From a virus (Duplodnaviria; Heunggongvirae; Uroviricota; Caudoviricetes): a DNA stretch of 64,000 bases. How positions within the stretch are numbered: the first letter of the stretch is position 1; the number at the start of each line of letters is the position of its first letter. Shown piece by piece: positions 60,960 through 61,575 of the stretch. The notes under the pieces are model-generated. The model saw nothing but the letters and a program-made list of their open reading frames with translations, was not told the origin of the DNA and searched no databases. The stretch lies in the IMG/VR virus record IMGVR_UViG_2734482790_000004, one strand, 5' to 3'. A program made the position numbers and the translations under genes.

Positions 60960-61409
60960 TTGATAATTTTTCTTCAGGAGGAAGACATGTCATTCTTTTC
61001 TACATTAAAAACAGCTTTGTCTTTGAAGGAGAAACTTGCTGCTACTGGTGTTCTTGTTCTGATTTGCGCACTTGTTGGTGCTGGGTTTGCGTGGGAACGT
61101 CATCAGCTAAAGCAAGCCATGGAGAAAATTGGCAGTCTTGATCAGGCTGTTAAGGAACGTGATAAGTCAATAATGGATCTTAACCAGACCATTGAGACGA
61201 TGAACAAAGCAGAGCAACATTTTCACAGCCAGGAAGTGAAAAATGAATCAGAACAAGCCAAGTATGCTGACAGGCAAATGGAACGAAAAGCTGAAGTTCA
61301 GAAACAACTTGTTGCGGCGGGTAATGTTCGCCAGCGTATTCCTGCTGACACTCAGCGGTTGCTCCGGGAGTCGATCAGCGAATTTAACGCCGACGCCGAC
61401 AAAGGTTAA
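60960..61409 (+). CDS. putative i-spanin-like protein (N-terminal TM segment plus coiled coil, 149 aa)
   Basis: Hydrophobic segment VLVLICALVGAGFAW followed by a charged coiled-coil region; overlapped out of frame by a lipoprotein ORF. Confidence 0.4.
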   Translation: MIIFLQEEDMSFFSTLKTALSLKEKLAATGVLVLICALVGAGFAWERHQLKQAMEKIGSLDQAVKERDKSIMDLNQTIETMNKAEQHFHSQEVKNESEQAKYADRQMERKAEVQKQLVAAGNVRQRIPADTQRLLRESISEFNADADKG

Positions 61410-61575
61410 CCACCCTGCCCCAAAAAGTGCATTTATGTGCAGGATGCCAGAGTTTAGCAGTGAATATTTTGATGATCTGCCAGCGTATATCCTCGATACA
61501 GAAACGATGCTGATGGGGATTAACAGGAAGAATCGCAACGTTAATGATTACAACCGCGCTATCAGCGGTAACTAA
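61324..61575 (+). CDS. putative o-spanin-like lipoprotein embedded in/overlapping the preceding gene (ORF track 61243..61575)
   Basis: Lipobox LTLSGC after a hydrophobic signal; Pro-rich mature part; +1-frame overlap typical of Rz/Rz1. Confidence 0.4.
   Translation: MFASVFLLTLSGCSGSRSANLTPTPTKVNHPAPKSAFMCRMPEFSSEYFDDLPAYILDTETMLMGINRKNRNVNDYNRAISGN

Follow-up and report, generated by a model that had tools for sequence, protein, structure and literature searches.

The genes ppfA and mlp, an overlapping out-of-frame pair on the plus strand of a 64,000-nucleotide (nt) stretch of viral DNA (IMG/VR record IMGVR_UViG_2734482790_000004; the whole stretch is referred to here as the window), very likely encode a two-component spanin, whose predicted role is fusion of the inner and outer membranes in the final step of lysis. 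The pair is the ppfA/mlp of a P1-like phage-plasmid and is already known as a spanin: it has been on record for P1 since 2007 and was catalogued once more in 2018. A preliminary description of the window had proposed spanin genes resembling Rz/Rz1 from two out-of-frame open reading frames (ORFs) at 60960..61409 and 61243..61575, the second in the +1 frame of the first, and both ORFs are present as described. Its spanin reading is supported by RefSeq, by record MH422554, by SpaninDB and by Bednarek et al. 2022, as well as by PHROG matches, probable remote homology to phage P2 LysB/LysC, selection on both frames and late expression.

Over 751 nt around the pair, Punavirus P1 MH422554 and two further 'phage P1' records match the window at 100% identity. 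Identity is 99.9% with Salmonella phage SJ46 and phage JL22, and 98.9% with both the P1 reference NC_005856 and P7. Both proteins are 100% identical to their counterparts in MH422554, JL22 and SJ46, and PpfA and Mlp are 99.3% and 99.1% identical to the NC_005856 proteins, with one amino acid change in each (PpfA M45 for I; Mlp L23 for W). NC_005856 names ppfA (P1_gp064) for a 'possible periplasmic function' and mlp (P1_gp063) as an 'Rz-like spanin', with the note 'membrane lipoprotein precursor ... possibly involved in regulation of lysis (by homology)', and MH422554 labels the two genes Rz and Rz1, its Rz1 being truncated. SpaninDB (Kongari et al. 2018, supplementary tables) lists P1 gp064/gp063 as i-spanin and o-spanin (OIS/OOS) with the architecture 'ovl'. 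Its entry for gp064 gives 140 amino acids (aa), a periplasmic domain of 104 aa, 0 periplasmic Cys and Cys 'one in TMD' (transmembrane domain), and that for gp063 gives 110 aa, a LipoP cleavage at 39, a mature length of 71 aa and 1 Cys. The window pair agrees with this entry in Shine-Dalgarno (SD) sequences, starts, lengths, lipobox and Cys counts. In their account of P1, Bednarek et al. 2022 (PMC9025707) also name ppfA and mlp as the spanin genes, attributing their recognition to Summer et al. 2007, and it is because of these RefSeq, SpaninDB and literature assignments that we treat the pair as known. The Introduction of PMC9025707 swaps the labels (ppfA o-spanin, mlp i-spanin); the TMD in PpfA, the lipobox in Mlp and SpaninDB say the opposite. 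Both genes belong to the 21 that are fully conserved in 77 P1-like phage-plasmids.

Spanin genes occur in embedded, overlapped and separated architectures (Kongari et al. 2018), so that adjacency takes one of three forms in this class, and ppfA/mlp has one of them. The two genes share 167 nt (61243..61409, +), which hold the last 55 ppfA codons and, in the other frame, the Mlp signal peptide and the first 15 mature residues, and mlp continues 166 nt beyond the ppfA stop. The pair is therefore of the overlapped, P2-like class and not of the embedded, lambda-like class, which corrects the word 'embedded' in the preliminary description. The 149-aa ORF reported there, read from TTG (60960..61409, +), does exist as an open frame. 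The likely start of ppfA is nevertheless ATG 60987, giving a gene at 60987..61409 (+) for a predicted type II inner-membrane protein of 140 aa. TTG 60960 was set aside as a start because ATG 60987 sits 5 nt after an AGGAGG SD (60976..60981, +; the same SD in SpaninDB) and opens a conserved N-terminus: it is the ppfA start of P1 RefSeq and SpaninDB, and every relative opens MSxFSTL. The mlp gene (61243..61575, +; 110 aa) has an SD of its own, AGGA, within ppfA at 61231..61234 (+), again the same as in SpaninDB.

Measured against the Summer 2007 / Kongari 2018 description of two-component spanins, PpfA has the predicted features of an i-spanin, namely one N-terminal TMD, type II topology and a helical coiled-coil periplasmic domain. 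A short N-terminal segment of net charge +2 leads into a transmembrane segment at residues 17-35 (61035..61091, +; LAATGVLVLICALVGAGFA; Kyte-Doolittle maximum 2.35), which contains the only Cys of the protein, C27, and the periplasmic part that follows (~104 aa) is 35% charged. Across residues 38-80 hydrophobic residues occupy 0.83 of heptad a/d positions compared to 0.49 +/- 0.07 in shuffles (P ~0.0005), consistent with the coiled coil seen at first reading; in the remainder of the helix the heptad pattern did not differ significantly from shuffles. An AlphaFold2 model built on an 18-sequence alignment (mean predicted local distance difference test score, pLDDT, 70) has helices at 13-110 and 120-138 with a break at AAGNVRQRIP, and as modeled PpfA fits the TMD-helix-linker-helix plan of i-spanins.

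Mlp in turn reads as the precursor of an o-spanin, in which a signal peptide of 39 aa precedes a mature lipoprotein of 71 aa. A hydrophobic core, VMFASVFLLTL, is followed by the lipobox L-S-G-C (residues 37-40; 61351..61362, +), in which Cys40 is the predicted lipidated residue, and this motif is conserved as L-S/N-G/A-C in all relatives (5 lineages). The residue at +2 is Ser and not the retention signal Asp, which predicts outer-membrane sorting, so that Mlp combines lipobox and Cys in the manner of an o-spanin, and a lipoprotein ORF does overlap the 3' region of ppfA as first noted. The accompanying statement that the mature part is Pro-rich is true of the N-terminal third (5 Pro among the first 30 residues) and not of mature Mlp as a whole (6 in 71 residues). 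Under the Summer 2007 / Kongari 2018 criteria, 507 of 528 spanin systems have at least one periplasmic Cys for intermolecular disulfides. In this pair it is supplied by Mlp alone, through the invariant Cys66 (mature Cys27; codon 61438..61440, +) in the motif AFMCRMPE.

The +1-frame ORF could be an untranslated chance opening within and after ppfA, and gene callers lend this idea some support: the Prokaryotic Genome Annotation Pipeline (PGAP) calls only a 43-aa stub past the ppfA stop in NZ_JCANKX010000003.1 (E. coli GmM062), and at related loci only stubs of 46-52 aa are called. We compared the frames across four diverged loci, one from Cronobacter phage JK004 and three on contigs (Salmonella, Klebsiella aerogenes and one other), whose PpfA shares 59-64% identity with the window protein. 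In all four, the ppfA and +1 frames are open and ungapped, with mlp starting within one codon of the same position and ending at the same place, and the remaining frame is closed by 6-13 stops. Expressed as mean pairwise mismatch per codon position in ppfA numbering, variability in the segment coding for PpfA only was 0.19, 0.18 and 0.44 at positions 1, 2 and 3. In the overlap it was reduced overall (0.14, 0.10 and 0.31), and after the ppfA stop it was 0.44, 0.15 and 0.12. Wobble thus moves at the ppfA stop to the third position of the mlp frame. At ~60% identity, Mlp also keeps its length, its start (+/- 1 codon) and its lipobox Cys, along with Cys66 and a ~50-residue core, AFMCRMPE..SEYFDDLPAY...T.TML..INRKNRN, all of which are invariant in its relatives. 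The AGGA ahead of the mlp ATG is a further point against a chance frame, and gene callers are documented to overlook overlapped o-spanin genes (Kongari et al. 2018). Because both frames are kept and the wobble switches at the ppfA stop, we give a chance origin next to no probability; the pattern indicates that both ppfA and mlp are under purifying selection.

The PGAP stub in NZ_JCANKX010000003.1 (95642-95773, equivalent to window 61444-61575) has neither signal peptide nor lipobox, and the same record calls ppfA a 'hypothetical protein'. The same truncation of mlp recurs in MH422554, JK004 and metagenomic gene calls.

PpfA matches phrog_89, 'Rz-like spanin', over its full length (E=1.2e-25), and Mlp matches phrog_30284 (E=3e-57) and phrog_456 (E=8e-5). 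When reference proteins were scanned, P2 LysB fell in phrog_89 (5.8e-61), the P2 LysC family was phrog_456 and LysC also reached phrog_30284 (5e-4), with lambda Rz and Rz1 assigned to phrog_13 and phrog_3198. Mlp and P2 LysC can be aligned directly, both by BLASTP (E=1e-7, 37% over 68 aa) and by hhalign (87% probability, E=4e-6), and the lipobox Cys, a PTP motif and the second Cys (Cys66) coincide in the alignment. BLASTP against the lambda proteins gave E=0.26 for PpfA and Rz, and E=0.005 for Mlp and Rz1, a match confined to the signal peptide. Because of these PHROG, BLASTP and hhalign matches, we read the pair from its sequence as a probable remote homologue of P2 LysB/LysC and only an analogue of lambda Rz/Rz1, as neither the sequence match nor the embedded layout of the lambda family was found. 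The Rz/Rz1 resemblance put forward in the preliminary description stands for predicted topology and for a lipoprotein in the +1 frame, and falls for layout.

P2 lysB/lysC resemble ppfA/mlp in that the lipoprotein gene begins in the +1 frame in the 3' part of the transmembrane-protein gene and passes its stop, with products of 141/96 aa compared to 140/110 aa for PpfA/Mlp. They differ in lying in a lysis cassette, after holin Y, endolysin K and lysA, whereas the P1 pair is unlinked, and the 39-aa signal peptide of Mlp is another difference from P2. The P2 genes are annotated 'nonessential; affects timing of lysis'. With lambda Rz/Rz1 the pair shares a predicted type II inner-membrane coiled-coil protein, a small Pro-containing outer-membrane lipoprotein in the +1 frame and a single Cys in the mature lipoprotein. 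However, Rz1 is wholly embedded in Rz, whereas mlp overlaps ppfA; Rz has two periplasmic Cys where PpfA has none; and mature Rz1, at 40 aa, is far richer in Pro than mature Mlp (71 aa). T4 PseT.3/PseT.2 (Kongari et al. 2018) offers a likeness of another kind, an i-spanin without periplasmic Cys paired with a relatively long o-spanin (83 aa) that carries the Cys, although the T4 genes are separated and not overlapped, and PseT.2 needs two Cys where Mlp has one.

By analogy with lambda Rz/Rz1 and T4 PseT.3/PseT.2, PpfA would be anchored N-in/C-out in the inner membrane. Mlp would be lipidated at Cys40, cut by signal peptidase II and carried by the Lol system to the inner leaflet of the outer membrane, where it would probably dimerize via Cys66. 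The periplasmic domains of the two proteins would bind each other, forming a complex that spans the periplasm through the murein meshwork and is restrained by it. Once Lyz, triggered by LydA, destroys the murein, the freed complexes would cluster and collapse, drawing both membranes together until they fuse and thereby removing the outer membrane, the last barrier to phage release.

The timing expected of lysis genes is seen in published P1vir RNA-seq data (PMC8201110, Table S1; wild-type log fold change at 10 and 30 min). Values rise from 5.6 to 11.2 for ppfA and from 4.1 to 10.5 for mlp, and the flanking genes in the same orientation behave alike: upfC (59866-60150, +; PAAR-motif protein) goes from 4.9 to 10.6, upfB (60102-60947, +; directly upstream of ppfA) from 4.1 to 11.1, and upfA (61587..61979, +; the downstream neighbor) from 5.2 to 11.2. 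Known lysis genes follow this course (lyz 6.1 to 11.3, lydA 5.2 to 11.8, lydB 3.4 to 11.0), as does gene 23 (5.4 to 12.1). The divergent neighbors uhr/hrdC/dmt start at 8.6-9.4 and reach 11-12, and parA/parB move from 9.2-9.5 to 11.4. The genes from upfC to upfA therefore show late kinetics like lyz, unlike uhr/hrdC/dmt and parA/parB. Because of their common orientation and expression profile, the spanin genes probably share a late operon (order upfC-upfB-ppfA-mlp-upfA) with UpfC, itself a probable tail-spike tip protein. This operon lies next to the plasmid replicon and, in contrast to the lambda arrangement, outside any lysis cassette. UpfC matches phrog_281 (2.5e-30), and its RefSeq note records 31% identity to T4 gp5.4.

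This setting also gives room to a different role. The genes could be real and the pair, or Mlp alone, serve something other than lysis: Mlp might, as an envelope lipoprotein comparable to lambda Bor, T5 Llp or phi80 Cor, take part in exclusion or modify the host surface, or the pair might act in virion assembly or entry with the PAAR protein UpfC. Orientation and expression in common with upfC are compatible with such a role, as are a locus adjoining the plasmid replicon away from lyz and lydAB, the predicted sigma-70 promoters P1ppfA and P2ppfA in the P1 annotation, and the non-essential score that both genes received in a CRISPR interference (CRISPRi) study, which is taken up below. We nevertheless consider it unlikely. 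Transcripts of the pair are low at 10 min and up by ~6 log units at 30 min, like those of late lysis and structural genes and unlike parA/parB; a conserved out-of-frame pairing of a transmembrane coiled-coil protein with an outer-membrane lipoprotein is the signature of spanins; and there is the probable homology to P2 LysB/LysC. The related proposal that the pair is not primarily a lysis device and has another envelope function (entry, exclusion or envelope remodeling in assembly), which is motivated by late co-expression with upfC/upfB, the lack of linkage to lysis genes and dispensability for plaques, is in our judgment also improbable.

Several observations weigh against assigning ppfA/mlp as a spanin, and we collect them here. 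PpfA has no periplasmic Cys, and compared by itself with P2 LysB it gives no significant match (BLASTP E=57; hhalign probability 1.3%). The NCBIfam LysB and LysC models (TIGR03495/NF038368) score 19 against a cut-off of 92.75 bits and 14.7 against 27 bits, and at E<=0.1 Pfam returned no family for PpfA or Mlp, with only coiled-coil noise below threshold. At 39 aa the Mlp signal peptide is longer than is typical, its n-region being unusually long, and SpaninDB flags the peptide as 'Too long signal sequence'. P1 lyz, lydAB and ppfA/mlp form three unlinked loci, so that the usual, though not obligatory, placement in a lysis cassette is missing. Bednarek et al. 2022 (PMC9025707) state that the spanin function in P1 has not been verified by experiment, and our search of the literature for later work on P1 ppfA/mlp function found none. 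Finally, the CRISPRi study reported an efficiency of plating (EOP) of 1.3 on knock-down of ppfA and of 0.24 on that of mlp and scored both as non-essential for plaques, and the same study scored lambda Rz as essential.

Two of these points can be qualified. We rejected the internal Met28 (ATG 61324) as a start for Mlp, which would shorten the signal peptide to a normal length, given that this Met is not conserved and the upstream ATG and SD are. Because Met28 is not conserved in relatives, the conservation pattern suggests that the long signal peptide is probably genuine. As for plaque formation, lambda spanin mutants also lyse in standard shaken laboratory conditions (Bednarek et al. 2022, PMC9025707), so that a non-essential score is weak evidence against a spanin and likewise weak evidence for a non-lysis role.

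The plating data bear as well on whether ppfA/mlp might be a true spanin that is redundant in P1 lysis and matters in some hosts or conditions only, either because the outer membrane is breached by another route or because Lyz and several holins are enough. An EOP close to 1 would fit, as would the complex lysis set lydA-lydE, which Bednarek et al. 2022 read as an adaptation to different hosts. No second spanin-like or disruptin-like gene turned up, no dedicated search having been made. That both genes are strictly conserved in the 77 P1-like phage-plasmids, and under purifying selection in relatives ~60% identical, speaks for a benefit that is not redundant, and we assign redundancy a small probability, leaving a spanin with a lysis function of its own as the favored reading.

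We also asked what might drive late transcription of the pair. NC_005856 has only the predicted sigma-70 promoters P1ppfA and P2ppfA before ppfA, and a generic scan of 59600-62300 for sigma-70 promoters and terminators returned sites no more numerous than in shuffles. A position weight matrix (PWM) was built from 9 annotated P1 late promoters, with leave-one-out scores of the true promoters ranging from 0.8 to 19.3, and it recovers the known late promoters of the window, such as an exact LPlyz match at 11000-11018. In the 39-nt spacer between upfB and ppfA the matrix points to a candidate Lpa-type late promoter at 60949-60967 (+; AAAGGACTTCATTGATAAT) with a weak score of 9.5, composed of a -22 box (AAAGGACTT), N4 and a -10 GATAAT, without annotation in NC_005856. 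In all four diverged relatives the matrix finds its best match at this offset too, 37-38 nt ahead of the ATG (scores 10.3, 8.0 and 18.2), an offset that is kept although the spacer sequence has diverged. The site scoring 18.2 (AAGTGACTTACCGGAGAAT; K. aerogenes locus L006) ranks first among 12,810 positions and is near consensus (AAGTGACTT...GAGAAT). Together these matches suggest, as a lead, an unannotated Lpa-dependent late promoter ahead of ppfA, with which the late RNA-seq kinetics are in keeping.

Two further matches to the late-promoter matrix were recorded. A second weak one at 59815-59833 (+; AAATAACCTAAGTTAAAAT; score 9.8) lies ~50 nt before upfC, and in relatives the motif upstream of upfC scores 5.3-13.6 at offsets of 48-52. 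A strong one at 56508-56526 (-; AAGTGACTGGTGATAACCT; score 16.0) lies outside the promoters used to train the PWM and, by coordinate mapping, near the boundary of gene 7 and gene 25.

The other lysis loci of the window are in different states. The endolysin gene lyz (11106-11663, +; signal-anchor-release endolysin; tblastn 99.5% to P1 Lyz; Pfam Phage_lysozyme) lies 49.3 kb upstream of the pair, in agreement with the remark that the pair is located far from it. At the left end, a complete Tn3-family transposase ORF (1-3009; 1002 aa; Pfam DDE_Tnp_Tn3, 1e-150) borders on the final 30 codons of lydB (3037-3126). The window contains neither lydA nor lydC, nor any more of lydB. Because only these 30 codons remain beside the transposase ORF, the antiholin gene lydB appears to be interrupted by the transposon.

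The window is a P1-like plasmid that elsewhere departs from P1, having another replicon, the Tn3-family insertion and a 10.9-kb inversion. The replication initiator (62278-63198, +) differs from P1 RepA, and the megablast match to P1 stops at 62116; the initiator ORF has a weak Pfam Rep3_C match, and its MH422554 counterpart is annotated 'RepFIB replication protein A'. The P1 res/mod interval (EcoP1 type III restriction-modification, with IS5) is replaced by ~1.4 kb of unrelated sequence at 22238-23648, and the isaA-IS1-isaB interval by ~0.95 kb at 9499-10448. From 33941 to 40121, ~6.2 kb have no megablast match to P1, which has ~3.5 kb there (the pmgT-humD variable region), and MH422554 also differs over this interval.

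The inverted 10.9-kb segment (46628-57702, relative to both P1 and MH422554) has precise junctions with a 2-nt overlap, and no inverted repeats were found at them. The inversion splits tail gene 25 and dmt, with the N-terminal part of dmt at 57636-58517 (-) and its C-terminal part at 46668-47831 (+). The junction 46627/46628, the sole one searched, occurs in 1 of ~500 P1-like records, NZ_JCANKX010000003.1 (E. coli GmM062). Either the inversion is genuine, a rare rearrangement that leaves a defective prophage, or the assembly is wrong at this point; with a correct assembly, the copy in the window may be a defective prophage, yet ppfA and mlp are intact.

The importance of these results lies mainly in annotation, as the pair is a textbook two-component spanin and P1 a model phage. 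Several P1-like records, including NZ_JCANKX010000003.1, call ppfA 'hypothetical' and truncate or omit mlp, and these annotations can be corrected. Judging from the conserved motif in the upfB-ppfA spacer, P1 could time outer-membrane disruption by an Lpa-dependent late promoter of its own, a lead that, if true, would help explain how P1 lysis functions spread over three loci are coordinated.

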